From positions 22,773-86,772 of the IMG/VR virus record IMGVR_UViG_2882613001_000002: 64,000 nt of DNA; one strand, given 5' to 3'. This document shows, in pieces, positions 8,748 to 30,936 of this stretch. The first letter of the stretch is position 1, and every line of letters starts with the position of its first letter. Below the pieces are notes generated by a model. That model saw nothing but the letters and a program-made list of their open reading frames with translations. It searched no databases and had not been told where the DNA came from. Origin of the DNA: a virus (taxonomy: Duplodnaviria > Caudoviricetes). A program made the translations under genes and the position numbers.

Positions 8748-10430
8748 TCATGCCGCCCTCCGTTCGAATCCGGCCACCGCGTTCACGGCGGCCTGGATGG
8801 CGCGTTTGTTGAAGCCGAAGGTCATCAGCACCGAAGCGCGGTAGCGCGTGAGGCCGAAGTCGTGCCGGCATTTCGGTGGCAGATATTTCAGCTGCTTGTC
8901 GGTCGGTGGCTGGCGCAGCCACGCCTTTGTCTTGAAGGCGCTTTCATCGCTTTCGTGGGTGTTCAGCCAGTCATCGGCCTGCGCGAGGCAGACGGTGCGT
9001 TCGCCGACGCCCAGCAGACGTGGCCGCGCGCCCTTGGCCCCGCCGACGGCGTACCAGACGCCGTCCATCCAGAAGATGCCGCCCCAGGCTGTGAAGCCGG
9101 TAGCCATTAGCGCGTCATCTGCGCCGAAGAGATCGACCCATGCGAAGCTGGAGCGCTTCAGCAGGTCGATCTCGGTCATGACAAAGCCTGAGAGTGGCGC
9201 TGCGTTCGTCCCGGTCTCGCCTTCGTCCTGCAGCAAGACCTCGCCGCAGAGCGGGCATTCAGTGGCGGCGAGCGGTATCTCCGCCGCGCAGGCGGAGCAG
9301 GATTTGGTCGGGGCGTCACCGGTGGCGATCTTGCCGTCCAGATCGACATCCTGTTCCAGCGTGCCGTGGATCAAGCTCGATGTCCCGAAATCCAGCACCA
9401 CGCAGTCGGTCTTGACGATGCCGGGGTGTTCTTCGGGATCGACCGTGCGCAACCCGCGACCGACCATCTGGATCATGGTGGATTTGTAGGAACTAGGCCG
9501 CAGCAGCACGACGCAGGAGGTGGGCGGGTGATCCCAGCCTTCCGTGAGCACGGCGACATTGACGATCACGCAGATCTCGCCTGCCGCATAGTCGGTCAGG
9601 ATGGACTTGCGGGTGTCGGCCGCCAGATCGCCGTGGATCAGCGCGGCCGTGATCCCCGCGGCGCGAAATGCCTCAGTGACGTGTTCGGCATGGGCGACGG
9701 TGGAACAGAAGACGACGGTCTGCCGGTCACCAGCCTTCTCGCGCCAGTGGCGGATCACCTCGTCGGTGACCGGCGCGCGGTCCATGATGTCCGCCACCTC
9801 GGTCATGTCGAAATCGGCACTGGTCTTGCGGACCGACTTCAATTCCTCCTGCACGCCCACATCGATGACAAAGGTGCGCGGCGGCACGAGATGCCCCGAG
9901 GCAATCAACTCAACCAGACGCACCTGGTCGGCGACATTGTCGAAGACCTCGCGCAGTCCTTTCTTGTCTCCCCGGGTCGGTGTTGCCGTCACCCCGAAAA
10001 CGCGGGCGTCGGGATTGGCGTCACGCACCCGGTTGATGATGCGGCGATAGCTGTCCGCCACCGCGTGATGTGCCTCGTCGATCACAAGCAGGTCGAGGCG
10101 CGGCATGTCGGCCAGGTTCGAGGCCCGTGCCAGGGTCGGCACCATCGCAAAGGTGACGTCGCCGCCCCAGGATTTTTCGGTGGCATCGATCACCGAGGTG
10201 GACACCTCCGGCACCATGCGCTGGAACTTGGCGCGGTTCTGCGCCGTCAGCTCGTCTCGATGCGCCAACACGCAAGCTTTGGCTCCATCACCGAGCATCG
10301 CGCCGGTGACTGCCGAGAGCATGATCGTTTTGCCCGCGCCGGTGGGCGCCACACCGAGCGTATTGCCGTGTTGGCCGAGCGCAGCAACACTGCGCTCGAC
10401 AAAGGTTTTCTGGCGGGGACGCAGGCGCAT
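8748..10430 (-). CDS. DEAD/DEAH SF2 helicase
   Basis: APTGAGKT, DEAHH, TATP, VLTEGWD and QMVGRGLR motifs. Confidence 0.95.
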   Translation of the reverse strand: MRLRPRQKTFVERSVAALGQHGNTLGVAPTGAGKTIMLSAVTGAMLGDGAKACVLAHRDELTAQNRAKFQRMVPEVSTSVIDATEKSWGGDVTFAMVPTLARASNLADMPRLDLLVIDEAHHAVADSYRRIINRVRDANPDARVFGVTATPTRGDKKGLREVFDNVADQVRLVELIASGHLVPPRTFVIDVGVQEELKSVRKTSADFDMTEVADIMDRAPVTDEVIRHWREKAGDRQTVVFCSTVAHAEHVTEAFRAAGITAALIHGDLAADTRKSILTDYAAGEICVIVNVAVLTEGWDHPPTSCVVLLRPSSYKSTMIQMVGRGLRTVDPEEHPGIVKTDCVVLDFGTSSLIHGTLEQDVDLDGKIATGDAPTKSCSACAAEIPLAATECPLCGEVLLQDEGETGTNAAPLSGFVMTEIDLLKRSSFAWVDLFGADDALMATGFTAWGGIFWMDGVWYAVGGAKGARPRLLGVGERTVCLAQADDWLNTHESDESAFKTKAWLRQPPTDKQLKYLPPKCRHDFGLTRYRASVLMTFGFNKRAIQAAVNAVAGFERRAA

Positions 10431-10442
10431 GACCGATCCCCC

Positions 10443-11069
10443 TTACTGGGCCCAGCTCGGCCGCCCGGGAGCACCGGGGTTGGCTGCTGGCGGATTGGAC
10501 GAGGACGTTGGGGCGGCAGCATTCTGCTGCGAAGTGGCCCCCGGCCCGGCGTTACCACTGAACTGCAGGGGTGCAGTTCCCATGACCTGCGCATAATCGC
10601 GATGGTCAGGCGTGACCGCGCTGCGGATCTCGTTCTTGTCGTCGCCACTGGCATCGGTGCCGATGTCGATGCGGGCGACGAACTCAATGCCGTCGAGATC
10701 GGCGAAACCGCTGATGCGCCGTGCTGCCTGCGCTTCCGGCGACATGTCCTTGTCGGAAATCCCGCGCGCCGAGTTCAGCATACCGCGCACCAGGCTGCGG
10801 CCCATATTGGCCCAGTCTGGCCCCTTCGGGCTATACAGCCCGATCAGCGTGAAGATCTTGCGCCGGGCATATTGCCCCTCGGTCACGGTGAACTCGCCGT
10901 TGAGGTACACCGCGCCGGTGGAGCCGCGCGTGGCATAGCCGCCAGTCCAGCCCTGCGAGGCGTCGTCGAAGCCGCCGGGGCGGATGGTCAGGCGCACCTT
11001 GGCCAGTGTGCCCTTGGGGATGAGGTTGGTATTGCTCTGCGCGTCGTTGAAATCGTTCCAGGAACCCAT
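10443..11069 (-). CDS. Phage ssDNA-binding-like protein (DUF669-like)
   Basis: LIPKGTLAKV...KNEI pattern with a flexible tail; follows an AAA_24 gene. Confidence 0.55.
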   Translation of the reverse strand: MGSWNDFNDAQSNTNLIPKGTLAKVRLTIRPGGFDDASQGWTGGYATRGSTGAVYLNGEFTVTEGQYARRKIFTLIGLYSPKGPDWANMGRSLVRGMLNSARGISDKDMSPEAQAARRISGFADLDGIEFVARIDIGTDASGDDKNEIRSAVTPDHRDYAQVMGTAPLQFSGNAGPGATSQQNAAAPTSSSNPPAANPGAPGRPSWAQ

Positions 11070-11088
11070 GGGGAACCTCCTTTTCTGA

Positions 11089-11964
11089 TCAGGATTGTGG
11101 TTGGGATTGGTCGTCAGCCGCCGGATCGGCGGACGGTGGGGCGTAGGTCAGCCGGTCGGATGCCGGTGTTGCAGCCGTCCGAATCTTGGCCATCAGGCGG
11201 CCGAGATGGGGTTCTTCGACTTGGTCCAGACGGCCCGAACGATCCTTGGCCGGGAAACTCCAGGGGTTGATCGTGTGGCAGACAAAGGCGCGATACGGAT
11301 CGCCGCCATCGGCCTTCAGTTCCGCCATGGTGATCACCTCGTCGACGATGCCTGGCAGCTCGAGCCCGGTCTTTGAGCCATCGATCTGCGGCTGGAACAT
11401 CTTGCGATTGAAGTCGTCGAGCTTCTCGTCGAGGATCCCGACCAACCAGACATTCTTGGCCCGCGTGTGCTGCAAATGGGTGAGCCAGCCGATCATCTCG
11501 CGGCCATGCAAGCCGTACGCCCCGCGCACATCCGGCTTGCCGGTTTTCTCCGACAGCGCCTCGGGTTGGCCTTTGCACCAGCCAAAGCACAGCCGCCCGG
11601 CAACCGTGATCGAATCCACGAAGATGGTGTCGTAGCGGTCCAGCGCTGCCGGATCGCCGAAGCGCTCGCAGACGGCGGCATAATGCGCGGGGCTGTATGG
11701 CTGCTCATCGCGCAGCGCCGGGTTCGGCCCACCGATGAACACCGCGAAATCCCGGCATTCCGTCCAGGTGCGCGGCCGGATGCTGTCACCCGCCCAGCCT
11801 TCGATGGCGAGGTCACCCGCTTCGAGATCCATGAACAAGGTGCGGTCGGCATCGAGGGTCCAGAGCAGCGAGGTCTTCCCAATGCCGGATTTCCCGAAGA
11901 TGCAGCCCTTGATGCCGCGTGGCTCGGCCAGCCGCTCGTCGGCGCTGATGATAGGGAGGCTCAC
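11089..11964 (-). CDS. AAA_24 ATPase (Sak4-like)
   Basis: GKSGIGKT, DLEAG, IFVDSIT and AKDRSG motifs. Confidence 0.85.
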   Translation of the reverse strand: MSLPIISADERLAEPRGIKGCIFGKSGIGKTSLLWTLDADRTLFMDLEAGDLAIEGWAGDSIRPRTWTECRDFAVFIGGPNPALRDEQPYSPAHYAAVCERFGDPAALDRYDTIFVDSITVAGRLCFGWCKGQPEALSEKTGKPDVRGAYGLHGREMIGWLTHLQHTRAKNVWLVGILDEKLDDFNRKMFQPQIDGSKTGLELPGIVDEVITMAELKADGGDPYRAFVCHTINPWSFPAKDRSGRLDQVEEPHLGRLMAKIRTAATPASDRLTYAPPSADPAADDQSQPQS

Positions 11965-16977: not shown

Positions 16978-17426
16978 CGACCCACGATCCGATCCCCGCG
17001 CGCCTGGCCGCGCTCAAGACCACATCGACGCCTGACCTAAAGGCGCAATGGCGGGAGTTGTTCGACAGCGAACCGCCGCCGTTCAATCGCCGTTACCTCG
17101 AAAGTCGCCTCGCGTACCGCATCCAGGAGCTGGCTTATGGCGGCCTGAAGCCGGAAACGGTAAAGCGGCTAGAAGCCCTTGGCGAGCAACTTGATGGCGG
17201 TGATCGCAAAAAGAGCCGCATCCGCGCTGACCTGACGCCCATCGTCGGGACGCGGTTGATCCGTGAATGGCAAGGCGTTGAACACCTCGTCACCGTCACC
17301 GCCGACGGTTTCGACTGGCAGGGTCGCCCTTATAAATCGCTGTCAGCCATTGCCTGCGCCATCACCGGTACGCGCTGGAACGGCTGGGTGTTCTTTGGCC
17401 TGAAAAACCACCGGAGGCGCGCATGA
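16974..17426 (+). CDS. DUF2924 protein
   Basis: LAYRIQELAYGGL, GTRLIREWQG and YKSLSAIA..ITGTRWNG motifs. Confidence 0.9.
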   Translation: MTTHDPIPARLAALKTTSTPDLKAQWRELFDSEPPPFNRRYLESRLAYRIQELAYGGLKPETVKRLEALGEQLDGGDRKKSRIRADLTPIVGTRLIREWQGVEHLVTVTADGFDWQGRPYKSLSAIACAITGTRWNGWVFFGLKNHRRRA

Positions 17427-18733
17427 CCAAGCCAATTGTCCGGAAACTGCGCTGCGCGATCTACACGCGCAAGTCCTCCGAGGAAGGGCTCGAGCAGGAA
17501 TTTAACAGTCTGCACGCGCAACGGGAGGCCTGCGAGGCCTATATCGCTAGCCAGCGCTCCGAGGGCTGGGTGCTCGTCCACGATCAGTATGACGATGGTG
17601 GCATTTCTGGCGGCACGCTAGACCGCCCGGGCTTGCAGCAATTGATGGCGGATATTGAGGACGGGCTTGTCGATGTGGTCGTTGTCTACAAGATCGACCG
17701 CCTCAGCCGCTCTCTGGCCGATTTCGCCAAGCTGGTCGAGGTGTTCGACCGCAATGACGTGACCTTCGTTTCGGTCACGCAGTCGTTCAATACCACCACA
17801 TCAATGGGGCGGCTGACGCTAAACATCCTGCTTTCCTTCGCCCAGTTCGAGCGCGAGGTCACGGCCGAGCGCATTCGCGACAAGGTCGCGGCGAGCCGCA
17901 AAAAGGGGATGTGGATGGGCGGGGTTCCGCCCTACGGTTATCGCGTTGAAAGTCGCAAACTGATCATCGACGAGGAGCGCGCAGCGCATGTCCGTTGGGC
18001 ATTCGAGCGGTTTATCAAAATCGGATCTGGCACCGAACTGGCCCGCGAAACCGCTGCCAAGGGCATACTGACCCCCAAGGGCAACCCGATGGACAAGAAG
18101 TTTATCTACCGCATGCTCAACAACCGCGCGTATATTGGCGAGGCGGTCCACAAGGGCGAAAGCTATCCCGGCGAGCACGACGCCATCATCGATCGCGAGA
18201 CGTGGGACCGCGTCCATGCCATCCTGCAGGAAAGCCCACGCAAACGCGCGGCCCGGACCAGAGCCAAAACACCAGCCATGCTCAAAGGCTTGCTCTATGG
18301 ACCGGACGGCGCGGCGTTTTCGCCGACGCACACCCGCAAACGCGACCGGCTGTATCGCTACTATGTCAGCCAGACCGTGCTGAAGCACGGCGCCGGATCG
18401 TGTCGCGTGGGCCGTGTCTCGGCTGGTGAGATCGAAACCGCCGTCATTGATCAGCTTCGCACAGTGTTCCGCCAACCCGAGATCGTGGCCGGGACATGGA
18501 AGGCGGCACGCGCCAATGCCGACGACATCACCGAGGCCGATGCCCGCGCGGCTCTGCAGCAGCTCGATCCGCTTTGGGATGAACTCTTCCCCGCCGAGCA
18601 GGCACGCATCGTGGCGCTTCTGATCGAGCGCGTGGACATCGGCACGGACGGGCTCAATGTCCGGCTGCGCGTCGACGGCCTCCGTGGCCTTGCGCGCGAG
18701 ATGTTTGCAGGCGGTATTGAGGCGGCGGCATGA
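17423..18733 (+). CDS. Large serine recombinase
   Basis: CAIYTRKSS (catalytic Ser), VVYKIDRLSRS and FAQFERE motifs plus a recombinase domain. Confidence 0.95.
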   Translation: MTKPIVRKLRCAIYTRKSSEEGLEQEFNSLHAQREACEAYIASQRSEGWVLVHDQYDDGGISGGTLDRPGLQQLMADIEDGLVDVVVVYKIDRLSRSLADFAKLVEVFDRNDVTFVSVTQSFNTTTSMGRLTLNILLSFAQFEREVTAERIRDKVAASRKKGMWMGGVPPYGYRVESRKLIIDEERAAHVRWAFERFIKIGSGTELARETAAKGILTPKGNPMDKKFIYRMLNNRAYIGEAVHKGESYPGEHDAIIDRETWDRVHAILQESPRKRAARTRAKTPAMLKGLLYGPDGAAFSPTHTRKRDRLYRYYVSQTVLKHGAGSCRVGRVSAGEIETAVIDQLRTVFRQPEIVAGTWKAARANADDITEADARAALQQLDPLWDELFPAEQARIVALLIERVDIGTDGLNVRLRVDGLRGLAREMFAGGIEAAA

Positions 18734-19131
18734 CCAGCAGGACGCCGATCCCGGACACCGTGACGCTGCACGTGCCTTTCCGTGTCGTGAAGCGCGGTGG
18801 GCGAAAGGAGATGCAGCTGCCCGAGGGCGTCAAGCAACCGCGTCGAACGGACAACACGCTGGTGAAGGCTCTGGCCCGCGGTTTTAGGTGGAAGTGGATG
18901 TTGGAGTCCGGGGACTTCACGACGATCAACGAACTGTCCAAACGCGAAGGGATCGCGCCATCATACATGACTCGCGTTTTGCGGTTGACGCTGCTCGCCC
19001 CGGATATCGTCGAAGCGATCTTGGATGGGCAACAGGGGCCGGAGATAACGCTGGCGCGGGTTCTGGAACCATTTCCGACCGAGTGGGAGGATCAATTGAT
19101 GAACTTCAAACTTGAGTTCCACGGGTCATAG
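18730..19131 (+). CDS. Recombinase-associated hypothetical protein
   Basis: LVKALAR...YMTRVLRLTLLAPDIVEAILDG pattern; ATGA overlap. Confidence 0.75.
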   Translation: MTSRTPIPDTVTLHVPFRVVKRGGRKEMQLPEGVKQPRRTDNTLVKALARGFRWKWMLESGDFTTINELSKREGIAPSYMTRVLRLTLLAPDIVEAILDGQQGPEITLARVLEPFPTEWEDQLMNFKLEFHGS

Positions 19132-19316: not shown

Positions 19317-20087
19317 GTGGCAGACGGATTCATCGCATTCGAGTTGGACCTGATGGGTGCAGTCATGAACCAGCTCATCCCCACGCTCGATGCCATGGGT
19401 AGCGCGCCGCTCACCCTAGACAACGCCCAGGCGCTTCCCGACGCCCAAGGCGTGTACCTGCTGATCCACGACGGAGAGGTCCGCTATGTCGGGAAAACCG
19501 ATGCGGAGGCTGGGCTTCGAACCCGCCTGGCTAGGCACGCGCGGAAGTTCGAGCAACGGCGAAACGTGCGGCCCGAAGATGTCCAGTTCAAGGCCGCGCG
19601 GATCCTCGTTCTGACCGCGATGGATATCGAATCCAGATTGATTGCCCACTACGGTTCGGAGTGGAACGGATCGGGCTTCGGGTCCAATGATCCAGGGCGC
19701 GAGCGCGAGACGACGAACAAGCCTGAGCAGGGCTTCGACGCGCGCTTTCCGATCGACATTGATACTCCGCATAGTTTGCTTGCGACGGGACAGACGACGG
19801 TTCACGTTGCCCTAATGGCACTGAAGGATGTGCTTCCCTACACCCTGCGCTACGAGGTTTCTTTACCACCGCCACGAACGAAGGTCGGAGGACATGACTA
19901 TCGGCTAAATCCTCACCCGGACATGCCAGCGTCGCAATTGGAGATTCCACCCGGTCCCATCTCAGTGCGAAGAGCAATGCAGCTGATCGTAGCTGCTTTG
20001 CCCGCTGGCTGGCAGGCGACCTATTTCGTGAGCCACGTGATCCTGTACAAGGAAGATCGCCAGTACGCTCACGGGGTTCAGATCTAA
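19317..20087 (+). CDS. GIY-YIG restriction endonuclease, Eco29kI-like
   Basis: GVY...YVGK, RLARH, ESRLI and WNGSGFGSNDPG motifs. Convergent with a C5 MTase. Confidence 0.75.
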   Translation: MADGFIAFELDLMGAVMNQLIPTLDAMGSAPLTLDNAQALPDAQGVYLLIHDGEVRYVGKTDAEAGLRTRLARHARKFEQRRNVRPEDVQFKAARILVLTAMDIESRLIAHYGSEWNGSGFGSNDPGRERETTNKPEQGFDARFPIDIDTPHSLLATGQTTVHVALMALKDVLPYTLRYEVSLPPPRTKVGGHDYRLNPHPDMPASQLEIPPGPISVRRAMQLIVAALPAGWQATYFVSHVILYKEDRQYAHGVQI

Positions 20088-21247
20088 GCCGCGCTGAGCT
20101 TGTCTCGAACGCCTGTGGCGACGATCCGAGCCAATTGGCACGGGACGGCGTTTCCGAGCTGCCGCATCGTCTCCGTCCACGAGCCGTGGAACACCATGTC
20201 GTCGGGGAAGGTCTGCAGGCGAGCGCTCTCTCGGATCGTGAAATAGCGCACCGAGCCATCAGGCCTGCGCAGCATGTTCTCGCCTCCAGGAACACCATGC
20301 ACGCCCGCCTTCAGTGTCTTGCCGGGCTCGTCAAGTGGGCTTCCCGTGTGCCCCGGATAGGAGCGTGCACCGGGTTGAAACCGGTGGTCATGAAAGTCCA
20401 GCGCCGTGCCGGACGCATGTTCCGGATCCGGAAGGTCGGAGATCGCGTCGCGCACGGTCAGCCACGGTTCGTCCAGAGGCCGCTCAGCTATCTTCAAGGC
20501 CCGCGCCTGCGCCGCACCACCATCCGGCCGGTTCTTGCGAGAGACGCGGTGCAGGTCCCAATAGACCTCCTCGCGCCATTGCGACCAGAGCAGCGCGTCC
20601 CGCGAGTGGGTCGGCTTCGGAAAGTGCCACTCGATCTCGGTGTCGGCACGGAACCCGACGAGGAAGATGCGCTCACGTCGCTGGGGGACACCGTAGTTCG
20701 CCGAATTCAGAACCCGCATCACCACTCGATAGTGCAGGCCCTTCTCGGTTCCCTTCGTGTGATGGTTCTCCAGGCGCGCGAGGTGTGCCAGCCATTCTTC
20801 TTCCCTCTTGGCAACAAGATCGGGATAGGTCAGCTGCAGTCGAATGTACTCGAGGTAATTCGCGAAACTGCTGCGCGTAAGCCCCTTTACGTTCTCGAAG
20901 ATGAAAGCCCTAGGTCGAAGCTCGCGCACGGCACGGATGGCCTGCGGGAACATGTCCCGGCTGTCGAGAAATGCGCGGTGGCGTCCGCCCATCGAAAAAG
21001 GTTGGCAGGGCGGTCCGCCCGTAACGAGGTCGACGGAGCCGCCTACGGTCCCAAAATCGAACTGCCGCACATCACCCTCATGAATCGGCCAGTGCGTAAT
21101 TGGATCAAGACCGCGATCTTTGTTCTCGCGGAGAGTGTCGCACGCCCATCGGTCCCAGTCCATGACGGCAGCCGGGCGGAATCCTGCTTGGCTGACGCCG
21201 ATCCCAAGCCCGCCTGCGCCCACGAACAGCTCGACCGATCTCATCAT
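20084..21247 (-). CDS. DNA cytosine-5 methyltransferase, M.Eco29kI-like (CCGCGG predicted)
   Basis: ELFVGAGG, GGPPCQPFS, ENVKG and GNAVP motifs. The TRD GARSYPGHTGS...KAGVHGVPGGENM recalls M.Eco29kI. Confidence 0.9.
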   Translation of the reverse strand: MMRSVELFVGAGGLGIGVSQAGFRPAAVMDWDRWACDTLRENKDRGLDPITHWPIHEGDVRQFDFGTVGGSVDLVTGGPPCQPFSMGGRHRAFLDSRDMFPQAIRAVRELRPRAFIFENVKGLTRSSFANYLEYIRLQLTYPDLVAKREEEWLAHLARLENHHTKGTEKGLHYRVVMRVLNSANYGVPQRRERIFLVGFRADTEIEWHFPKPTHSRDALLWSQWREEVYWDLHRVSRKNRPDGGAAQARALKIAERPLDEPWLTVRDAISDLPDPEHASGTALDFHDHRFQPGARSYPGHTGSPLDEPGKTLKAGVHGVPGGENMLRRPDGSVRYFTIRESARLQTFPDDMVFHGSWTETMRQLGNAVPCQLARIVATGVRDKLSAA

Positions 21248-21660
21248 CCCAGGAACTCCCCGATCCTTGCCTGCAATTCCTCTCGGTTTTTTGTTTGGCA
21301 TTCCCATATCACGAGGACGTCCCAACCGAGTTCTGCGAGCAGGACGATATTACGCTCGTCCCGTTTCCTATTTGTTTCCAGCTTCGGGCCCCAAAAGTCC
21401 AGCCTGGATTTCGGGAGTCTCGCCAGCGGGCACGCCGGATCTGGGTGTCGGTGCCAAAAACAGCCGTGCACGAAGATTACCTTTCTTCGAGCCGGAAAGA
21501 CTAGGTCAGGCTTCCCGGGCAGGTCATGACGATGAAGCCTGTAGCGATAGCCCATACCGTGGACCAGGCGGCGCACCAGCAGCTCCGGCTTGGTGTCACG
21601 GCCGCGGACCCGGCTCATGCGCTCGCTTCGCTGTTCTGGCGTCAGTGTATCCACGCGCAT
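21244..21660 (-). CDS. vsr: Very short patch repair endonuclease
   Basis: RSERMSRVRGRDTKPE, PGKPDLVF, FVHGCFWHRH and VIWEC motifs. Confidence 0.95.
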   Translation of the reverse strand: MRVDTLTPEQRSERMSRVRGRDTKPELLVRRLVHGMGYRYRLHRHDLPGKPDLVFPARRKVIFVHGCFWHRHPDPACPLARLPKSRLDFWGPKLETNRKRDERNIVLLAELGWDVLVIWECQTKNREELQARIGEFLG

Positions 21661-21715
21661 CCTTATAATGGCACGCAGAGTGGACCGACAAGAAGAACTT
21701 CCGAACTCATACTAG

Positions 21716-22237
21716 TTAGTCCAACCAAATCAGGCGCTTGATGCCAATTTTGTCCGCCGCGCTTTCGACGACTGCGCGCTGGGTTGCCATCCCGAACTTT
21801 GCTGAAGATTCGGTCAGCACAGCTGCAAAAGGCTCGCTATTCTCGAAAGCACGCTCATGCAGGGCCATCAACGTTGCCTTCCAGTCAGCTGCCTTGCTCC
21901 AAGCGATCTGGCGCCCATCGGGGAGAAGGCAGCCGTGCGGTTTAATGAAAGTCGCGCTGACCTCTGCACCCTCGTCAATCCCGAGCACCCGGAATACGCG
22001 CGCGGGGTTGGCTGAGGCCTCCCTAGTGTATGACTTGAGGAGCGTATCCTTGATATAAACGCGAACTTTTCGCGGGTCCATGTACTGACCCAGCCTTCCG
22101 CCAATACTCTCCGTCTCGGTCCACACCGAGTAGTAACGCGACTTATCGGTAGCCGAAAGCGCCGACCAATTGAGCCGATCAGCTTCTGCCCACAGGTGCT
22201 CCTTGATCTCGCTTCGAACGCTCACGGGCACCCTCAT
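21716..22237 (-). CDS. Hypothetical protein in the MORC/helicase operon
   Basis: 173-aa ORF whose start overlaps the helicase stop. Confidence 0.75.
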   Translation of the reverse strand: MRVPVSVRSEIKEHLWAEADRLNWSALSATDKSRYYSVWTETESIGGRLGQYMDPRKVRVYIKDTLLKSYTREASANPARVFRVLGIDEGAEVSATFIKPHGCLLPDGRQIAWSKAADWKATLMALHERAFENSEPFAAVLTESSAKFGMATQRAVVESAADKIGIKRLIWLD

Positions 22238-23907
22238 TGCACGCCTCCCGGCTGGGGTGCGGCTGGAAACTCAAACTGCGGAACTTCTAACTGCGCGTCA
22301 CCCTCGCGCAAAATCAAATCCGCCTGATCCTTCATCCATTCGAGCATGAAATTTCCTGCCGATGCGTCGCGGAAATTGATGAGATTGTGTCCGAGAGGCA
22401 GCCGCTCGACAGGACCCGCAGCGGCCTTTTCAAGTTCGATCACTTCCGCCACTCGACGCAGATCGGTCACGAAATCCATCACGATTACCTTGTCTTTACC
22501 GTGGCTCAGGCGAAGCCCCCGGCCAAGCTGCTGGACAAAGATCCGACGGCTATGCGTCGCGCGCATGAAGACAATTAGATCAACATCAGGCACGTCAACG
22601 CCTTCGTTAAACAAATCAACACTGGACAATACATCGATGTCCCCTCGTCGGAACATTGCCATAAGTCGATCGCGCTCGCGGGCTTCCTGCCTCGACGAAA
22701 TAGATTCAGCGCGCAATCCGTAACCACGAAGTGTTCCCGCGAAACTCTCAGCGTGATCAACCGTTGGAGAGAACACAATCCCACCCCGCCGCTTCTCGCT
22801 GCGGAAAGCCTCGACAATGTGCCTGGCCGCCTCATCGTCGCGAGTTGGCATCAAAAGCTTCCTGTTCAGTTGGTTTAGAGAATAGTTGTGCGAAGAGATT
22901 TCCTGTACAAACTCCCAGTCGACGTTGTCTGCCAACAGCCGATAATCGACCTCGCAAAGGTATTTCTGCCTCAGGCCGTCTGAGATACCGAGCCGAACAA
23001 GCGGCTTGCCCAATAGCTCATCGATGTCGAAACCATCGCCGCGCCACGGCGTTGCCGTTGCTCCACCGACCATAGGTGGCTCAAGAGCAGCGAGCGCACG
23101 CCGAAAACTAGCGGATCCGATATGATGCGCCTCATCGACAAGCACCAAGCCAAAATTTGGCAAATCATCGACACGTCCAATGATGCTTTGGACCGTCGCG
23201 AAAGTGATTCCATCGTAGAAAGATGGGGTCTCATCGCCCGAAAGCATATGCGTTGGAACCCACTTGGGCAGCTGATGCCAAAATCCGAATTGTAGCTGTC
23301 GAATGAGCTCACGTTTGTCGGCGAGAACGAGCACCCGGTTTTCGCGAATGAGGCCATCACGATAAAGATCCGCAACAACTTCCGCCATTACCACGGTCTT
23401 GCCTAAACCCGTTGCAAGCACGACTTGAGCGCGACCCGTGTCCGTGAGGCCTTCGCGAAATCTATCGACTGCCTCTTGCTGATATGGCCTTAGATCCCTT
23501 CTCGACTTAGGGTACTCGGGGACTTCTTGAGCAAGGTGCGCAAGACGAGCTGGATCGAGTAATTCGACATTGATCCCTATCCGGCGGAAACGTTCGATTT
23601 CGGCTAGGACTCCACCACCGACCGCGCGTGAAGTCGCCAGAAGCATACGGTTGGCACCATAGTATGTTCCGGCATCGACAACTTCTTGGACGGCATGTTT
23701 CGTGGGCGGGGCGGTCGTGGTGTGTTTGCACTGCACAACCCAAATCTCACCGTTTTTCACGCCAACGACATCTGCGCCTTTGTCGCCCGAACCACCAACA
23801 ACGCGCACATCATCGAAGCCTGCATGCATCAAAATTCTTGCAACATCGCGCTCAAACGCTTGCCATGGGCCACGTAGGAGTCGCCTGTCGTCAAGAAAGT
23901 GCGTCAT
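22234..23907 (-). CDS. Mrr-like restriction endonuclease fused to an SF2 helicase
   Basis: N-terminal FERDVA...GDKGADVV...VQCK, then LATGLGKT, DEAHH, TATP, NEGVDVP and QQLGRGLR motifs. Confidence 0.85.
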   Translation of the reverse strand: MTHFLDDRRLLRGPWQAFERDVARILMHAGFDDVRVVGGSGDKGADVVGVKNGEIWVVQCKHTTTAPPTKHAVQEVVDAGTYYGANRMLLATSRAVGGGVLAEIERFRRIGINVELLDPARLAHLAQEVPEYPKSRRDLRPYQQEAVDRFREGLTDTGRAQVVLATGLGKTVVMAEVVADLYRDGLIRENRVLVLADKRELIRQLQFGFWHQLPKWVPTHMLSGDETPSFYDGITFATVQSIIGRVDDLPNFGLVLVDEAHHIGSASFRRALAALEPPMVGGATATPWRGDGFDIDELLGKPLVRLGISDGLRQKYLCEVDYRLLADNVDWEFVQEISSHNYSLNQLNRKLLMPTRDDEAARHIVEAFRSEKRRGGIVFSPTVDHAESFAGTLRGYGLRAESISSRQEARERDRLMAMFRRGDIDVLSSVDLFNEGVDVPDVDLIVFMRATHSRRIFVQQLGRGLRLSHGKDKVIVMDFVTDLRRVAEVIELEKAAAGPVERLPLGHNLINFRDASAGNFMLEWMKDQADLILREGDAQLEVPQFEFPAAPQPGGVQ

Positions 23908-26297
23908 GCAGAGATCTCAACATCTGGTTTCAATAGCTCCAGAGACATTACAGCCCGAATGACCTCACTCCGTGAACTGCTGGCAAGATCTCCGCTGTCT
24001 TGCTTGGAGAGCCAAACAGCGTCGTCAATTAGAGCAAGATAACGCGACAAGACACCAGCGCGTGCTTCTGCGGTGATTTGCGGGTCGCCGTAATCGAGGT
24101 CAGCGTAAGGGGAATCCCAAAGCTTGCCATCGAAGCATAGGTCCGGCCGTTTCTCAACGGCAATTCGAACAATTTCGAGTGGCCCAGAAAGAAGGAAACT
24201 ACCATTCACCGTGGCCTCGGAAGGCTTGATTTTTTTTGCTGCCAACGCGCGCATAACCGCAGTCTGCTCATCCACGCCTAAGTCATTGAACAGAGAAGCG
24301 CGTTCCTCCTCAGGACAAACCGAAACAAGACAACGAGCCACATCAACTAGAACCGACGTGGCAGTATTGGGCAATGCCTTTAGGTCAAGAGCCGTCTCTT
24401 CCCCATAGGCGTCCCGAAAATCCGCGAATAATTGAGCAAAGTCGGGCTGTTGGCTAGAGTTGCGAGTCTGATCCGCAGTCATGTAAGCGAGATGCGCTAG
24501 GAGCGCGTCCCTTGGTGTCATTGTGATTGATTCAAAGGTTTTGTGTGCAGGATTGAAAAGAAAATGATGGGTCTTCGTCGTCACGTCACCCATAATCATG
24601 GCCCACGGAGCATCTCCCGCTAAATCGGGGTCCTTGGAGTCGACCTCATATGCGACGACATTCCATTTCATGCCAGTACCGTCATGTTGATACCGGCGAC
24701 TAAGGAGTGGCGCTTCTCGACGCTCCGGTGCTGCGGCCTTCTCTGGCTCGGGAGGCGTTGCCGGATCTGGATCAGGCGTATCGCCGCCGGATGTTGCGCC
24801 GCCGAGGAGGCCTGGCGGAAGTTGTGCATCGCCACCAGATGTCGGTTCCTTGCCCCCAGTTGCTCGTCCGCCGGCGCCGTAGAGCAACTCACGGTCAGCG
24901 GCCTCAACGAGCTCCCACCATTTACTGTCGTCCTGATAGTCAGGATTGCCATCGTGGAAGGCATTGACCATTTCGACGGCGCGAGCGTTGTCCTTGACGA
25001 TCAAAATTCGTCCGTAGGCGCCTGCAGTCTTGGAGTGAGGACTCGTCCGTCGGAAAGCTTTAAAAAGTCGAAAGAGCGGTGATTCATTTGGGCCATAGCC
25101 AAGATCTTTAGCTTTTTCAGGACGAAGCGGCCCCTCTCCTCGGATGACTCTATACATTTCATCCCATGTCGGATCTGCACGATCAAAACGATCTTTAGCA
25201 TAGCTGACCCGGCAATGATCAATGTGGATCTCACCAACTATGCGGCCTCGGTTTCGCTGATCGTCAATCGGGTACTCCCGCTCTTCATTTTCCCCATCGC
25301 TCCAGGAAAAAAGGTCCTTGTTCCCAATCTCAATTTTTCGCCCATTGCGAACAAAATCGATACCGAACTCGGACTGGTCGAGATATCTCTGAATTCCCAG
25401 CCACCCCGTAACCTTGCGTTTACGTTCGACTACAGACTTAGCGGTTTCGCAATTCGGACATGTTCCGCCCACTTCCGCATCTACGAGCCAACTCATGCAA
25501 TTGATGCAGTACAATCTGGCTGCGAGTTCATGATTGATACTGATAACTGCCGGAATATTTGTTCCACCGGGCCCGGGAACAACCCGATCTTCATTCCACA
25601 GGCAATGACGTCGCGCCTCGACGCGCTTGTGGTTCACATAGAGCTCGAAACTGATTGGAATTCCGTTCGGCCGAAGCATCGAAGAGTAAGCTTGCGAGAG
25701 CCGTTTGCGTATTGCCGTTTGATTCGCGTTTTTTGCGAGCCATTTTCTTTGCTCTGGCTTGAGTTGCTTGATCGTAATCTCGGTACCATGTTGATCGGGA
25801 TCGGCCTTTGCGCGCGACAAACGCGGCGTCCGAAAGTGACGCTGCAGACGCAACTTGTCGAAATCGATCAGGAGTCCGTGCCACTCACGCTCACCCTTAC
25901 GCGTAGTCCAAACTTCGGTGACCGAACCAAGACGAGCCGTGGCGATGTTGAAGCCCATGCCAAACAGCCCAAGGCTATCGATTGGATTATTGCCTGACCA
26001 ACCGGCGCGTACGGCGCGTTCCAGCATATCTGGTGTCATGCCGGGACCATTATCGATAATCCGAAGTGTCGCTCCAGGTGAGTCCGCTTGCGGCAAGTGG
26101 ACATCGACCTTTGCACCAGCGACCGAGTTTCCAGCACGTCCTTCTTTCAAAAAGCCGTCAACTGCGTTGTCGACGAGTTCTGCAACGCAGCGCCACTGAT
26201 CGATGTTGATCTCGCCGAGCATCGGCAATACGCGCGGATCAGGCTCGAGATTGAATTCGCTCGCCGGCCGCAGATCGTTCACATTGATGCTCGCCAT
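23904..26297 (-). CDS. GHKL ATPase, prokaryotic MORC-like
   Basis: ELVDNAVD, DNGPGM, GLFGMGF and HGT boxes. CxxC...CxxC insert, GIDFVRNGRKI / IVGEIHID S5-like region, Pro/Gly linker and an unknown C-terminal domain. Confidence 0.85.
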   Translation of the reverse strand: MASINVNDLRPASEFNLEPDPRVLPMLGEINIDQWRCVAELVDNAVDGFLKEGRAGNSVAGAKVDVHLPQADSPGATLRIIDNGPGMTPDMLERAVRAGWSGNNPIDSLGLFGMGFNIATARLGSVTEVWTTRKGEREWHGLLIDFDKLRLQRHFRTPRLSRAKADPDQHGTEITIKQLKPEQRKWLAKNANQTAIRKRLSQAYSSMLRPNGIPISFELYVNHKRVEARRHCLWNEDRVVPGPGGTNIPAVISINHELAARLYCINCMSWLVDAEVGGTCPNCETAKSVVERKRKVTGWLGIQRYLDQSEFGIDFVRNGRKIEIGNKDLFSWSDGENEEREYPIDDQRNRGRIVGEIHIDHCRVSYAKDRFDRADPTWDEMYRVIRGEGPLRPEKAKDLGYGPNESPLFRLFKAFRRTSPHSKTAGAYGRILIVKDNARAVEMVNAFHDGNPDYQDDSKWWELVEAADRELLYGAGGRATGGKEPTSGGDAQLPPGLLGGATSGGDTPDPDPATPPEPEKAAAPERREAPLLSRRYQHDGTGMKWNVVAYEVDSKDPDLAGDAPWAMIMGDVTTKTHHFLFNPAHKTFESITMTPRDALLAHLAYMTADQTRNSSQQPDFAQLFADFRDAYGEETALDLKALPNTATSVLVDVARCLVSVCPEEERASLFNDLGVDEQTAVMRALAAKKIKPSEATVNGSFLLSGPLEIVRIAVEKRPDLCFDGKLWDSPYADLDYGDPQITAEARAGVLSRYLALIDDAVWLSKQDSGDLASSSRSEVIRAVMSLELLKPDVEISA

Positions 26298-26388
26298 TAC
26301 ACTGATTCCCCATTAACCTCAGGATATTCATTCAATATCTCCGTACGATATGGAGGCCTCAGGTTGAACACAAGCGAAGGAAGAAGAT

Positions 26389-27090
26389 TTGACTGTAGGT
26401 ACTCCAGTTCCCACGACTTCGGAACTCGAAGACTACCTCGAGCGCCTGCGGCCGACAGTAGACGAGACGATCGACAGGCTAGGTGCAACCCGCTTCCGGG
26501 AAGATCCCATCGCGGGTAGAAAGTACTCCCGTGCGACCTCGATTATCAGCTCAGCCTACAAAAGACATGGCGCCATCCTTCAAAGGGCCCTACTTGAGCG
26601 GCTTAAGGACTGCGCAAGGTTGCGCGTTTGGACAGAGGACGACTTCAAGCTTTCACATGACACACTCCGGGAGGTCCGGATCGCGGAGCGGCTAGACTCC
26701 TTGTTGCAAGCGCACCTTCCGTATGGAGATCGTGAACGCTCCGTGCGCGTCGACATCTTGGTATTCGACGAGGTAAGTCGCTCCCTAAACGCCTACAATG
26801 TCAAACGCGGCAACGGCTCATACGATGGAGGAAAGCGGCGCCTTATTCACGAAGAGCTCGTCCGCACCCAGATGCTTCTCAGCGATTACGGCCGCGGGCT
26901 TGGGCTCTGGTCGGAGACGAGCAATGCTCACGTCATCTTCTACTACGGCCTTCTATCGCTACCACCGCCACTTGCGATCTCTGGTTACGATCTCGACGAG
27001 CATTTCCAATTTCCTGTCCATGAGGCAATCGAACTCGTTAACGCCTATTTCGTTGCGCGGTTATCAGCGCTCATCGAGCAGGAAGACTAG
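26389..27090 (+). CDS. Hypothetical protein, possible restriction-endonuclease fold
   Basis: 233-aa ORF with a TTG start and VDILVFD...AYNVKRG, divergent from the MORC gene. Confidence 0.6.
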   Translation: MTVGTPVPTTSELEDYLERLRPTVDETIDRLGATRFREDPIAGRKYSRATSIISSAYKRHGAILQRALLERLKDCARLRVWTEDDFKLSHDTLREVRIAERLDSLLQAHLPYGDRERSVRVDILVFDEVSRSLNAYNVKRGNGSYDGGKRRLIHEELVRTQMLLSDYGRGLGLWSETSNAHVIFYYGLLSLPPPLAISGYDLDEHFQFPVHEAIELVNAYFVARLSALIEQED

Positions 27091-27282
27091 CCCCACCAAT
27101 GTTATAGGTAGCTCCGTGCGCACGTTGCTCGGTCCCCGATTGCGGTTCGATCCCAGTCCTATTTGAATAGGTGGGACCAAGATCGGAAACATTTCTTGCC
27201 GCACTCTTTTCCCGTTTTCTTTCAATGTCTTGGAAGAAATTCACCAAACCAATGCAGTTAACAGGTCCGGAGAATTTCGGGC

Positions 27283-27405: not shown

Positions 27406-27424
27406 TGGCGGAGGAGGTGGGATT
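27406..27424 (-). other. tRNA 3'-end remnant (tRNA-Ser-like); att core of Element 2
   Basis: TGGCGGAGGAGGTGGGATT is the reverse complement of AATCCCACCTCCTCCGCCA (T-arm/acceptor stem plus CCA). The similarity stops after 19 nt. Confidence 0.8.
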
Positions 27425-27476
27425 TCGCGCCCTCGATAGACCCTTTATTTGCAAGACATGAAATAGAGGTGTGCGC

Positions 27477-27804: not shown

Positions 27805-28881
27805 GTGTTTCATGCGAGTGAGGATAGTCTAGACGACCTATTGAGGGCCGTTTTCAAGCAGCTGCTCACAGGGCGCGGGAATTTTGAAGTCGAATCCAGC
27901 AAAGGTAGAAGCACTGAGGTCTTCGGTGCGCTCTTAGAGCTCAAGAACCCGCGCGCGCGACTAAGCAGATCGTTTTCGAAAGCTAAAGCCTTTAGTCCAC
28001 TTGGCGAGTTGTTTTGGTACTTGGCGGGCAGCGATAGCGTCGATTTCATCAAACACTACATCCCCAACTATCCAAAACTGATAAAAGACGAAGTTACTGC
28101 AAATGGGGCCTACGGACCGCGAATATTCGGAAAAGGGGCACTAGAAAAGCGTGACGAAGTTAGCGAGTGGGATCGGGTGATCCGTACTTTGCGTGAGCGA
28201 GAGGGCTCGCGCAACGCAATAATACAGATTTACGCTAACTCCGATGCTAGGCCCGAGAACGGCGACAAGCCTTGTACCTGCACCATTCAATTTGCGGTTA
28301 GGAATGGGCAGTTGTTGATGCACACGCATATGCGGTCCAATGACGCATTCTTCGGCCTCCCGCACGACATTTTCACTTTTACTATGCTTCAGGAGGTTGC
28401 GGCTCGTGAACTTGGGTTTGGGCTGGGTAAGTATACCCATTCTGTGACAAGCCTACACTTGTACCATGACTATGCGGCAACTGAGGGTCGCCCAGCGAAC
28501 ACTTCAACATCTGGCGCCAAAGCGTACTACAGGGAGGGTTTCCATGATTTCTCGCCAATGCCTGAAATGCCATCAGGAGACCCATGGCCGAGCATAGAAA
28601 AGGTAAAAATGGCAGAGCAAGAAATCCGATCTGGCAACATCGAGTACATCGCTCCAACAGACCTTGATCCGTACTGGCGCGACTTCATTGAGCTTTTCAG
28701 AATCCACAAAATATTTGAGGAAATGAAGAAGCGCGGAGATGGCCTTAGAACCGAGAGGCCCGAGCTGCGCAGAGTTGTGAAGGTCATGAAAGAAACTTCA
28801 CCGACCTATCGGATCTACATCCTCGGTAGGCTCGAAAGAAAACAATCCCCCGTTAGGGATCTATTTGAGAATGTAAGTTGA
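27805..28881 (+). CDS. Thymidylate-synthase-fold enzyme, predicted cytosine-nucleotide (hydroxy)methylase
   Basis: ELFWY, YGPRI, catalytic PC (C157), RSND and SLHLY motifs. GLPHD places Asp188 where ThyA has Asn. Confidence 0.85.
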   Translation: MFHASEDSLDDLLRAVFKQLLTGRGNFEVESSKGRSTEVFGALLELKNPRARLSRSFSKAKAFSPLGELFWYLAGSDSVDFIKHYIPNYPKLIKDEVTANGAYGPRIFGKGALEKRDEVSEWDRVIRTLREREGSRNAIIQIYANSDARPENGDKPCTCTIQFAVRNGQLLMHTHMRSNDAFFGLPHDIFTFTMLQEVAARELGFGLGKYTHSVTSLHLYHDYAATEGRPANTSTSGAKAYYREGFHDFSPMPEMPSGDPWPSIEKVKMAEQEIRSGNIEYIAPTDLDPYWRDFIELFRIHKIFEEMKKRGDGLRTERPELRRVVKVMKETSPTYRIYILGRLERKQSPVRDLFENVS

Positions 28882-28891
28882 GAGGTGGGTC

Positions 28892-29830
28892 ATGAACGGT
28901 GTCCACAAAGACAGAATAGACGAGTTCCTCGGAAAGATTGGCCAGATTGACGCGCAATTTGGCCCACTCCCCAGTATTGCAACAGCCCAGCGGAGACGTT
29001 GCTGGGCGCAACAAATCGTGTCCAGCCTACGTCGAATTTCATATACAGACACGTTGTTGATGCGTAGAGTGAATGCGGCGAGGTGTGATCCGCATTCCGG
29101 TATTTTCGACCCGGTACGAGGGGCGCTTCACTTTCAGAGAAGCGGACAACTCGATGAAGCGGTCTGGTTAACTTTCGTCCTCACCCATTTTGGAAAACAC
29201 GCGGTAGATGAATGGAAGCTGGCTGCAAATGTCTATGGTTCGTTTAGCGTGGGACCAGTTTGGACGTTCGCACAGTATACTGCAGACCGTGCAGGGTTCG
29301 AGAACATGTTGGCCGCAAACTCTGGCCGGTTGGCGGACGCCAACATTTCGGGTAGTTTTTCTAACCACCGCAAATTTCAGAGCAAGAAACATCAAGCCAT
29401 AGCGAAGACGTTTCGCACGTACTATGAGTGGCAGACTGAGTTCGGCGGATTTCGTGATCGAATGATCGCGACACATGCAAGTTTCGGTCAGGAACCCGAA
29501 GCGGCTTTCGATGCTCTCTACAAGTCCATGAAGGGGGTTTTTGGCTTCGGTGGAGGACGCCTCGGAAGGTTCGATTTCCTTACGATGCTCGGCAAACTTC
29601 AGCTTGCTCCGATTACACCAGGCAGCGTCTACTTGGATAAGGCAACAGGACCTCTTGCAGGGGCACGGCTTCTGTTTTTCGGTGATCGCGACCATCACAT
29701 TACCGGTAGAGCCTTGGAGCCTCACGTTGATGCCTTGGACGGGGTTCTTGGCGTGGGAAAACAGGTGATCGAAGACAGCCTTTGCAATTGGCAAAAAAGC
29801 CCTGATGTTTACGAGTATTTCCGAGGTTGA
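28892..29830 (+). CDS. aGPT-PPlase clade 3-like protein (HhH glycosylase superfamily)
   Basis: FDPVRGA, EAVWL..THFG, NHRKFQS, GRFDFLTMLGKL, TGPLAGARLLF and EDSLCNWQKSP motifs, recalled as that family's pattern. Lies 10 nt after the TS-like gene. Confidence 0.65.
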   Translation: MNGVHKDRIDEFLGKIGQIDAQFGPLPSIATAQRRRCWAQQIVSSLRRISYTDTLLMRRVNAARCDPHSGIFDPVRGALHFQRSGQLDEAVWLTFVLTHFGKHAVDEWKLAANVYGSFSVGPVWTFAQYTADRAGFENMLAANSGRLADANISGSFSNHRKFQSKKHQAIAKTFRTYYEWQTEFGGFRDRMIATHASFGQEPEAAFDALYKSMKGVFGFGGGRLGRFDFLTMLGKLQLAPITPGSVYLDKATGPLAGARLLFFGDRDHHITGRALEPHVDALDGVLGVGKQVIEDSLCNWQKSPDVYEYFRG

Positions 29831-30936
29831 GAAGGGACCGGCAGTTTAGTGCTCCCTTCCCATTTGTAACGGCGCTTTAGATCATTAAATTGGTGGGGCT
29901 GGAGCGCCCCAGCTTTTTGAAGCTGTCCGACAATAATTCCCGGTGTGACCCCGGCTTTTCGAGCGATTCTCCGTACATGAGGACGGGTCGGCATTGCGTT
30001 TAACATCTCATCTCGCAAGTCAGCCGAAACAAGCGTATCTTGAGCGAAAATGTCAGCTTCGCCTTCGAATACAGACGCTCCTAGCGGTGACGGATCAGCG
30101 CCATCCACCGAAATGTGGTCAGTGCCATGCAGAACCACGTGTGCGGCCTCGTGGAAAAAAGTGAACCAAAAATGGTCTTCACTTAAATAGCGAAAGCTTA
30201 GCAAGATAATCGGGTTGCCGTTTGGGGATGTCCAAGTGGCACCGCTTGCTCTACAACCTTTCGGGGCCTTCGAGCTTACCAGGCCAACACCTTCCTCAGC
30301 GCAAGCTTGCTGCAGTTTTGGAAAGAATAACTCCGGGCGCTTGAGCGCACATAGCTTCTTCAACTCAGTCAGACGTTTCTTGAAATTGCTCGCGGAAAAC
30401 TTCGCCAAGGTCAGGTTTTCAGCTTGCATCTCTCCGATACGCAGCCAGGCCAAAGTCGCCATCTCGTCGGCCTCAAAGGCAAAAGATGTTCGAAATGCAA
30501 CTTGGCCTATCCCAGCGGAGTACCGCTGGTTCCAACCGCTGATGCTATCGCATCCAAAAAAGTTCAGGATGTCCTCGGATAGACGCTCACCGCGAGAGCC
30601 TTTCGGCAGCCAACCGAGTTCTCGGAGGGCTCGAACTGGAAACGACTGCCCCCACCTAGACAACTCTTCGGTTGGCGCAGAACCTGCAAGCCGCGCTCTA
30701 TCTCCCAGAAACTGGTTATAGCGTTCAATCCAGAACTGGCGTGATGCACCAAGCTCCGAAGATAGGGCGTCTGCGATTTCTTCGGAAATCACAACGCGCC
30801 CTTCCATTATTCCAGAAAACAAGTCTTCTTCGAACCCGATGCGTTCGGCCAAATCGTGAATTGATTTTTTTCCAGCCGCAGCCAGCCTTGCGATTGTGTC
30901 GCCCGGTGGGGAAGCCCAGTTTGGTTCAAACATCAA
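29809..30936 (-). CDS. HTH plus ImmA/IrrE metallopeptidase (HigA-like antidote fusion)
   Basis: SPPGDTI..., SRQFWI HigA-type HTH and WFTFFHEAAH (HExxH). Confidence 0.85.
   Translation of the reverse strand: MMFEPNWASPPGDTIARLAAAGKKSIHDLAERIGFEEDLFSGIMEGRVVISEEIADALSSELGASRQFWIERYNQFLGDRARLAGSAPTEELSRWGQSFPVRALRELGWLPKGSRGERLSEDILNFFGCDSISGWNQRYSAGIGQVAFRTSFAFEADEMATLAWLRIGEMQAENLTLAKFSASNFKKRLTELKKLCALKRPELFFPKLQQACAEEGVGLVSSKAPKGCRASGATWTSPNGNPIILLSFRYLSEDHFWFTFFHEAAHVVLHGTDHISVDGADPSPLGASVFEGEADIFAQDTLVSADLRDEMLNAMPTRPHVRRIARKAGVTPGIIVGQLQKAGALQPHQFNDLKRRYKWEGSTKLPVPSQPRKYS

Follow-up and report, generated by a model that had tools for sequence, protein, structure and literature searches.

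A MORC ATPase and Mrr nuclease-helicase operon with an Eco29kI-like methyltransferase in an integrative phage-like element

Introduction

A prediction made in 2008 traced the eukaryotic MORC chromatin silencers back to prokaryotic MORC systems as their bacterial roots (Iyer, Abhiman and Aravind 2008, PMC2292703). In the operons concerned, a MORC gene accompanies a Rad25-like helicase fused to a nuclease of the restriction endonuclease fold, cytosine methylases and Vsr are often included, and a role in restriction-modification (R-M) was predicted computationally (PMC2292703). A preprint of October 2026 calls this R-M role of prokaryotic MORC proteins proposed, citing the 2008 prediction alone. 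Here we analyse such an operon in a 64,000-nucleotide (nt) stretch of a Caudoviricetes virus (IMG/VR record IMGVR_UViG_2882613001_000002, positions 22,773 to 86,772), the whole of which is referred to below as the window. The operon encodes a MORC-type GHKL ATPase, an Mrr-type nuclease fused to a superfamily 2 (SF2) helicase, a protein of 173 amino acids (aa), Vsr and a C5 cytosine methyltransferase (MTase), and the locus probably works as a restriction module that depends on ATP and is guarded by methylation.

The locus shares with the type-1 MORC operon of Iyer et al. (PMC2292703) a GHKL plus S5 ATPase, a Rad25-like helicase-nuclease, a DCM methylase and VSR, as well as a lateral, sporadic pattern of transfer, and judged by sequence it is an instance of this predicted R-M operon. 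The accessible text of that paper does not mention the conserved third gene (173 aa), the prophage-end location, the alternation of accessory genes (Eco29kI-family, PIN_8 and 233-aa) or the fact that the MTases all belong to one M.Eco29kI-like family. The initial annotation of the window had stated that no detailed characterisation of this composition was known; this stands for experimental work, while the composition itself had already been described computationally (PMC2292703).

As the annotation had also noted, Eco29kI-type R-M needs only R and M, and plasmid pECO29 (NC_001537) indeed carries just these two genes. The MTase of our locus is related to M.Eco29kI over its full length, and the GIY-YIG nuclease beside it is a PF09517 member like Eco29kI and carries the GIY-YIG motif. 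In contrast to pECO29, however, Vsr and a MORC module are added here and the nuclease is very distant. CglI, NgoAVII and BceSIV (PMC4267653) are similar in combining a C5 MTase with restriction that requires a separate SF2 helicase-like ATPase and NTP hydrolysis, but they have a PLD nuclease with a B3-like domain and a Z1-domain helicase, with neither GHKL nor Mrr; Pfam and PADLOC scans of all genes of the locus revealed neither a PLD nor a Z1 domain. BceSIV was considered as a GHKL system and set aside, being a PLD and helicase system. VcSduA of Vibrio cholerae (Shedu type I-D, paraMORC3; PMC12137116) likewise couples a GHKL ATPase of the MORC/paraMORC radiation to a PD-(D/E)xK nuclease, and its anti-phage activity needs both ATPase and nuclease residues (PMC12137116). 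It differs in being a single protein with a DUF4263 nuclease and a GHKL domain of another family, and in having no helicase, MTase or Vsr; Pfam did not find DUF4263 in the locus, where the C-terminal domain of the MORC protein is a small sheet with a helical bundle. SauUSI (PDB 7clg) provides the closest solved helicase core and also has its nuclease fused N-terminally to the helicase. Its nuclease is of the PLD kind, though, and with a C-terminal 5-methylcytosine reader it attacks methylated DNA, whereas the locus has an Mrr-type nuclease, no reader domain found by Pfam, and an MTase that is always linked. Unlike type III R-M (Res/Mod), finally, the sole MTase here is a monomeric C5 enzyme such as type II systems have, and not an N6-adenine or N4 Mod subunit.

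No named PADLOC system fits the locus. The MORC, 173-aa and 233-aa proteins matched no model, and the helicase (as mREase_IV), the MTase and Vsr matched generic R-M models only.

Results

The five co-oriented genes and two flanking open reading frames (ORFs) of the initial annotation were all recovered (Table 1), and the family assignments held. As had been read, three of the four operon junctions are stop/start overlaps of 4 nt each, namely MORC/helicase, helicase/173-aa and Vsr/MTase, the last being an ATGA overlap if the MTase begins at Met 21247; the 173-aa gene and Vsr are separated by a gap of 55 nt. The Pfam PF00145 match of the MTase begins at Met 21247, the longest ORF starts at 21325, and the Met is probably the true start. 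The overlapping junctions indicate translational coupling of the operon genes. The GIY-YIG gene is convergent with the MTase gene, as annotated, and the stop codons of the two overlap by 4 nt. The lower guanine-plus-cytosine (GC) content ascribed to the island was confirmed as well, at 0.51-0.63 over 19-27 kb compared with ~0.65 for most of the window. A promoter and terminator scan gave counts no higher than shuffled expectation.

Among the candidates scored, 3422 proteins belonged to the MORC ATPase family at E <= 0.001, and at least 419 loci were confirmed in one-genome-per-species contigs (~185,000 species genomes scanned). The neighbourhood comparisons were made on the best 80 of these loci, drawn from many phyla, together with the window (81 loci). 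The order MORC, helicase, 173-aa was kept in ~74 of the 81, and since it recurs in this way across many phyla the gene arrangement is far beyond chance. Loci with the core order that also carry a C5 MTase and Vsr were found in Pseudomonadota, Planctomycetota, Nitrospirota, Acidobacteriota, Actinomycetota, Chloroflexota and others. Almost every locus also has the C5 MTase and Vsr, whose position and orientation vary. In one group, ordered MTase-MORC-helicase-173aa-Vsr, Vsr stands apart from the MTase and directly after the 173-aa gene; the MORC genes thus part Vsr from the MTase, which ties all five genes into one operon.

The accessory genes were counted from hidden Markov model scans, in which several GIY-YIG proteins score with both the A and the B model. 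An Eco29kI-family GIY-YIG nuclease of either subfamily occurs in 42 of the 81 loci, the 'A' subfamily of the window in 14 and the 'B' subfamily in 35; 32 loci have a PIN_8 protein after the 173-aa gene and 20 have the 233-aa protein. For the accessory clusters, Pfam searches agreed with the PIN_8 and Eco29kI assignments. No profiled accessory family was detected in 24 loci, all of which keep the MTase, Vsr and the MORC module, and the Mrr domain is thus the sole recognised double-strand nuclease there. The stable unit is the set of five genes MORC, helicase, 173-aa, Vsr and MTase, joined by the 233-aa gene in the clade of the window, and the Eco29kI-family nucleases are frequent but interchangeable accessories.

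A tree of the MORC proteins resolved four clades (actinobacterial, core-only, 233-aa and PIN_8), with the window in the 233-aa clade. Within it, four modules with ~97% identical MORC proteins differ in their GIY-YIG gene, the window having type A, L075 type B, and L001 and L002 none; a type B homologue replaces type A in L005 also. DNA homology of the window to L001 and L002 covers exactly 20064-27100 and ends at the MTase stop and the 233-aa stop. The six-gene block between these points is therefore a mobile unit, with the GIY-YIG gene as a variable flank, and it moves between a prophage end and a conjugative context and is also found on plasmids. Contigs from isolate RNA-seq ('organism A', runs X15 and X16) contain a ~93% identical copy of exactly 20097-27100 with unrelated flanks, so that their ends independently place the module boundaries where the genome comparison does. 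The MTase and Vsr have recombined independently of the MORC genes; in L002, MTase identity to the window is 79% and MORC identity 96%. An 86% identical module is carried by Roseovarius sp. 217 (L003); Roseovarius sp. is among the species in a figure legend of Iyer et al. (PMC2292703), although a match to this locus could not be confirmed.

These comparisons bear on the proposal of the initial annotation that the operon is built onto an Eco29kI-like R-M system. The proposal is borne out for the MTase, an end-to-end relative of M.Eco29kI, and by the frequency of Eco29kI-family nucleases. It fails for the GIY-YIG nuclease as a platform, which is of type A, of type B or absent at ~97% MORC identity and has no counterpart in the 24 loci without profiled accessories.

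One large clade (L025:14547-15647 and 31 other loci; plasmid NZ_CP102414, L083:10473-11552) has a seven-gene co-directional form, in the order MTase, Eco29kI-type nuclease, Vsr, MORC, helicase, 173-aa and a ~366-aa PIN_8 protein, which RefSeq labels as a PIN-like domain protein. In Pararhodobacter marinus (L057:9995-12706), a 903-aa ORF joins the greater part of MORC (window residues 13-771) to a PIN_8-like C-terminus, and the helicase and 173-aa genes are missing; this fused ORF looks like a deletion derivative of the seven-gene form.

The MORC ATPase matched HATPase_c_3 (E 2e-10) and HATPase_c in Pfam. Its GHKL domain, zinc ribbon (CxxC-x12-CxxC) and S5-like region are followed by a Pro-rich linker and a conserved C-terminal domain (residues 525-797). 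All four GHKL nucleotide-binding motifs (E40/N44; D82/G84/G86; G110-G115, with G110/G113/G115; T172) are present and invariant in 10 homologues, as are C264/C267/C280/C283. A MORC-specific motif, GhXhhpXXRhl, has been described in the S5-fold region (Iyer et al. 2008, PMC2292703), and the stretch G312-I-D-F-V-R-N-G-R-K-I322 fits it at 10 of 11 positions with the key residues invariant, so that the S5-like region appears to carry the MORC-specific signature. The only PDB sequences matched by a profile of the protein were MORC3 and MORC4 (E 5e-5 to 6e-4), weakly and in the GHKL domain only. The ATPase thus has the features of a prokaryotic MORC protein and appears closer to the eukaryotic MORCs than to other GHKL proteins. 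PHROGs gave a weak match to the GHKL domain only. The BbrUII/HgiDII family (NCBIfam NF050001) was rejected for this protein, at 21.9 bits over the GHKL region only against a cut-off of 550 bits.

The C-terminal domain of the MORC protein (window 24725-23907) was modelled with a predicted local distance difference test (pLDDT) score of 94 as a four-stranded sheet plus a helical bundle. Weak HEPN-like structural matches recurred (Z 5-6.9), among them the HEPN domain of sacsin; in the literature, the sacsin HEPN domain groups with the GHL ATPase Tiamat (Tiamat preprint), and HEPN-paraMORC fusions have been reported. A HEPN identity was rejected, as these Z scores are below the meaningful level for helical bundles and there is no conserved Rx4-6H, and a Foldseek search with the model gave no match. 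Looked at as a hypervariable recognition domain, the C-terminus proved to be moderately conserved (majority-residue fraction 0.45-0.7), and the MTase family is likewise unvarying.

In the nuclease-helicase, Pfam placed Mrr_cat at residues 14-125, followed by ResIII and Helicase_C, and the motifs GDKGAD...QCK, GLGKT, DEAH and QQLGRGLR are all intact. Its identity among related loci, 58-99%, is the highest in the module. Its top PDB matches are SauUSI (7clg, E 2e-26), RadD and XPB, and XPB, RadD and Rad25 are among its top PDB and NCBIfam matches taken together. Pfam found no modified-cytosine reader domain (SRA, DUF3427) in the protein, of which the ~70-residue C-terminal tail is without a structural model.

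No match to the 173-aa protein was found in Pfam, NCBIfam, PADLOC or PHROGs. In its model (pLDDT 87) the N-terminal domain is helical and the C-terminal one alpha/beta, and the top structural matches of the latter (VIA-align) are proteins of the restriction endonuclease fold, at Z 5-6.7. Leads to NucS/XisH from a protein atlas, weak ones at a score of 0.8, are in line with these matches; Foldseek returned nothing for the model at E <= 0.001. D107 is nearly invariant and is followed by a mostly conserved (D/E)-W-K120. A firm assignment as a nuclease was rejected since the structural scores are too low, and from the weak fold matches of its model the protein is a candidate small recognition or nuclease-partner subunit.

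The annotation had called the ORF divergent from MORC nuclease-like. The ORF itself is real, and its 233-aa product is present in all 20 loci of the clade of the window; it matched no family, and neither PADLOC nor PHROGs recognised it. Relaxed Pfam, PDB profile and 5.8-billion-protein profile searches gave no named relative. The sole lead, to TdeIII/HinfI-type nucleases, came from a language-model atlas (score 0.93, 185 shared features), and the protein is possibly a type II nuclease of the TdeIII/HinfI kind.

The MTase (PF00145, E 1e-54) contains the motifs FxGxG, PCQ, ENV, QRRER and GNAVP. It aligns with M.Eco29kI of pECO29 end to end over 389 columns, at 46% identity and 63% positives and with the recognition region unbroken, and is 65% identical to the MTase of a stand-alone cassette. 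Across ~78 loci the recognition region, between motifs VIII and IX, is 40-60% identical with few gaps and as conserved as the catalytic core. Given this conservation and the similarity to M.Eco29kI, the MORC subfamily is, as far as sequences tell, bound to a single MTase family. Eco29kI is specific for CCGCGG, and from the identity between the two MTases the target of the present one is probably CCGCGG or close to it. In the window, 20 CCGCGG sites were observed against 50 expected (z -4.3). Also under-represented are CGATCG (13 against 58 expected), GCCGGC (13 against 57) and GGCGCC (30 against 67), a depletion of palindromes that suggests pressure from several host restriction systems.

Proteins of the Vsr family repair the T:G mismatches that arise by deamination of 5-methylcytosine. 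The Vsr of the locus matched TIGR00632 with 144.7 bits (cut-off 97.9) and also PF03852. The GIY-YIG protein scored marginally against RE_Eco29kI (PF09517; 32.4 bits against a gathering score of 30.8), contains the motif GVY...YVG and gave a local match only, of 28%, to Eco29kI itself; PHROGs had no match for it. Homologues 41-48% identical to it occur on plasmids in stand-alone Vsr-MTase-GIY cassettes without MORC. The 'A' and 'B' subfamilies have only the GIY-YIG core in common, at ~25% identity.

The locus had been placed between the recombinase and the element end, and this position was verified. Homology of the window to five related loci (L075, L003, L010, L005 and L004) stops at 27424-27438, and each of them has a tRNA-Ser gene there, at ~8800-8913 of the locus. 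The serine recombinase of the window is conserved beside the locus in L003, L010 and L075, and genes for phage-type replication, encoding an AAA_24 protein and a second ResIII helicase, are found further left at 8748-11964. From the homology stop, the recombinase and the phage-type genes to its left, the locus is cargo of an integrative phage-like element, lying between its serine recombinase and its attachment end at tRNA-Ser. The tRNA-Ser genes at the related elements have anticodons of three kinds (gct, gga and tga), and the window keeps only the 3' remnant of the tRNA, suggesting that the recombinase targets a 3' sequence common to tRNA-Ser genes. The stop of the recombinase gene is overlapped by a 133-aa ORF (18730-19131), possibly an accessory of the recombinase or a directionality factor, which L003 and L010 share and which matches PHROG 14161 ('recombinase', E 1e-35).

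To the right of the element end, the genes at 27805-30936 (a thymidylate-synthase-like gene, an aGPT-Pplase3/amino-acid:DNA-transferase at E 6e-85, and a gene with helix-turn-helix and Peptidase_M78 domains) look like a DNA base-modification cassette of a neighbouring element. This right-hand element has a tape-measure-like protein (TMP_2) at 37155-40442, which together with the AAA_24 and ResIII helicase genes on the left supports the phage nature of both elements. DNA of the window occurs in marine metagenomes, and marine metatranscriptome fragments match the locus at 99-100% identity. In a collection of sequenced phages no record had the MORC module, and the MTase/Vsr part alone was matched.

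Table 1. Genes and element landmarks at the MORC locus (window coordinates).
Feature	Coordinates	Strand	Basis
Large serine recombinase	17423..18733	+	Pfam Resolvase, Recombinase, Zn_ribbon_recom
GIY-YIG nuclease, Eco29kI family 'type A'	19317..20087	+	PF09517 and GIY-YIG motif
C5 cytosine methyltransferase, M.Eco29kI family	20084..21247 (longest ORF to 21325)	-	PF00145
Vsr very-short-patch-repair endonuclease	21244..21660	-	TIGR00632, PF03852
173-aa core protein, family-less	21716..22237	-	Position after helicase in 74/81 loci
Mrr-type PD-(D/E)xK nuclease and XPB/RadD/SauUSI-like SF2 helicase, 557 aa	22234..23907	-	Mrr_cat, ResIII, Helicase_C
MORC-family GHKL ATPase, 797 aa	23904..26297	-	HATPase_c_3, HATPase_c
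233-aa protein, divergent from MORC	26389..27090	+	Clade-specific; no family match
tRNA-Ser 3' end remnant (...CCA), end of integrated element	27406..27430	-	Homology break and sequence read

Discussion

What the loci compared show directly is their gene content, intact catalytic motifs and conserved synteny, the single MTase family and that the module is mobile; a complex of the proteins, its recognition sequence, its sensitivity to methylation and the order of events are what we infer. In the proposed scheme the M.Eco29kI-family MTase would mark host and element DNA at the predicted CCGCGG or a site near it, and Vsr would repair the resulting T:G mismatches and so limit the mutational cost of methylation. 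Two nuclease layers may read this one mark, an accessory and exchangeable type II layer formed by the GIY-YIG enzyme, and the conserved MORC module. A MORC dimer would close on unmodified DNA as an ATP-driven clamp and recruit or license the Mrr nuclease and SF2 helicase, leading to translocation and cutting. The 173-aa protein, with its helical domain and restriction-enzyme-like fold, would be a small DNA-binding or nuclease-partner subunit, and the clade-specific 233-aa protein is probably a further nuclease. That the locus is a restriction module of this general kind is supported by the synteny in ~74 of 81 loci, the 24 loci without profiled accessories, the coupled genes, the intact motifs and the conserved recognition region of the MTase, and further by the mobility of the six-gene block, the match to the type-1 operon of Iyer et al. 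(PMC2292703) and the existence of VcSduA as a validated GHKL-nuclease relative. The more specific proposition, that MORC, helicase and 173-aa protein form a second, mechanistically distinct restriction machine reading the same C5-methyl mark, with the MORC clamp sensing unmethylated sites, is put forward tentatively, as one that may well prove wrong.

Several points weigh against a methylation-guarded restriction module. Literature searches found no experimental study of this MORC operon family. Similarity to M.Eco29kI is the sole basis of the predicted CCGCGG target, and the depletion of CCGCGG in the window is no stronger than that of several other GC-rich palindromes. No target-recognising component was identified, the fold matches of the MORC C-terminal domain and of the 173-aa protein being below Z 7. 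The matches in RNA libraries, which may contain DNA, give only a hint that the locus is transcribed.

The genes could instead be two unrelated neighbours, an ordinary Eco29kI-type R-M system of GIY-YIG, MTase and Vsr that would account for all methylation-linked restriction, and a MORC-helicase module that is blind to the MTase mark and acts in a type IV-like or plasmid-sensing manner. Defence genes do cluster in islands, Vsr-MTase-GIY cassettes do stand alone without MORC, and the top PADLOC and PDB matches of the helicase, mREase_IV and SauUSI, are type IV enzymes. However, one operon of overlapping genes comprises the MTase, Vsr and the MORC genes, and the MORC genes can even part Vsr from the MTase; the loci without profiled accessories retain the MTase and Vsr with the module; the moving block 20064-27100 leaves out the GIY-YIG gene; and the helicase has no SRA or DUF3427 methyl reader that Pfam can find. 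We regard this explanation as unlikely. Alternatively, the MTase itself could be the recognition subunit, like the Mod protein of type III systems, with MORC and the helicase-nuclease acting only on an MTase bound at an unmodified site. One MTase family is linked to the module at all loci, the MORC, helicase and 173-aa proteins yielded no domain of their own for reading sequence, and helicases of this Rad25/Res-like kind were tied to type III systems by Iyer et al. (PMC2292703). In contrast, the domain content of the MTase goes no further than that of M.Eco29kI or the stand-alone-cassette MTases, and the MTase and Vsr genes recombine apart from MORC, as the two identities in L002 illustrate; there seems to be only a small chance that the MTase has this role.

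It is also conceivable that the module serves repair rather than restriction, as a MutL-like ATPase and a UvrD-like helicase-nuclease that complete the Vsr repair of T:G mismatches caused by the MTase. Vsr is almost always present and sometimes directly follows the 173-aa gene, and in E. coli MutL is known to stimulate Vsr; the analogy to MutL-Vsr-UvrD is one that Iyer et al. stressed (PMC2292703). An intact Mrr-type double-strand nuclease domain fused to the helicase is nonetheless hard to reconcile with repair, as is the recurrence of the module on plasmids and at prophage ends together with GIY-YIG, PIN_8 and other nuclease genes. Some 1,500 residues of machinery would be a high cost for a rare lesion, and the stand-alone Vsr-MTase cassettes manage without a MORC module, and so we consider a repair accessory very unlikely.

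The window adds one more instance to a family found in at least 419 of ~185,000 species genomes, and the family is now defined enough to test. With its relatives, the locus offers a compact target, with a five-gene core, one MTase family whose target is likely known, and natural variants with and without each accessory nuclease. If the MORC, helicase and 173-aa proteins do form a second restriction machine, the 173-aa protein would represent a new small subunit for recognition or nuclease activity, and the operon would provide the first tractable bacterial model of how ancestral forms of the eukaryotic MORC silencers made ATP-driven action on DNA depend on cytosine-methylation status. To show what the MORC clamp senses would cast light on phage defence as well as on how methylation-linked gene silencing arose.

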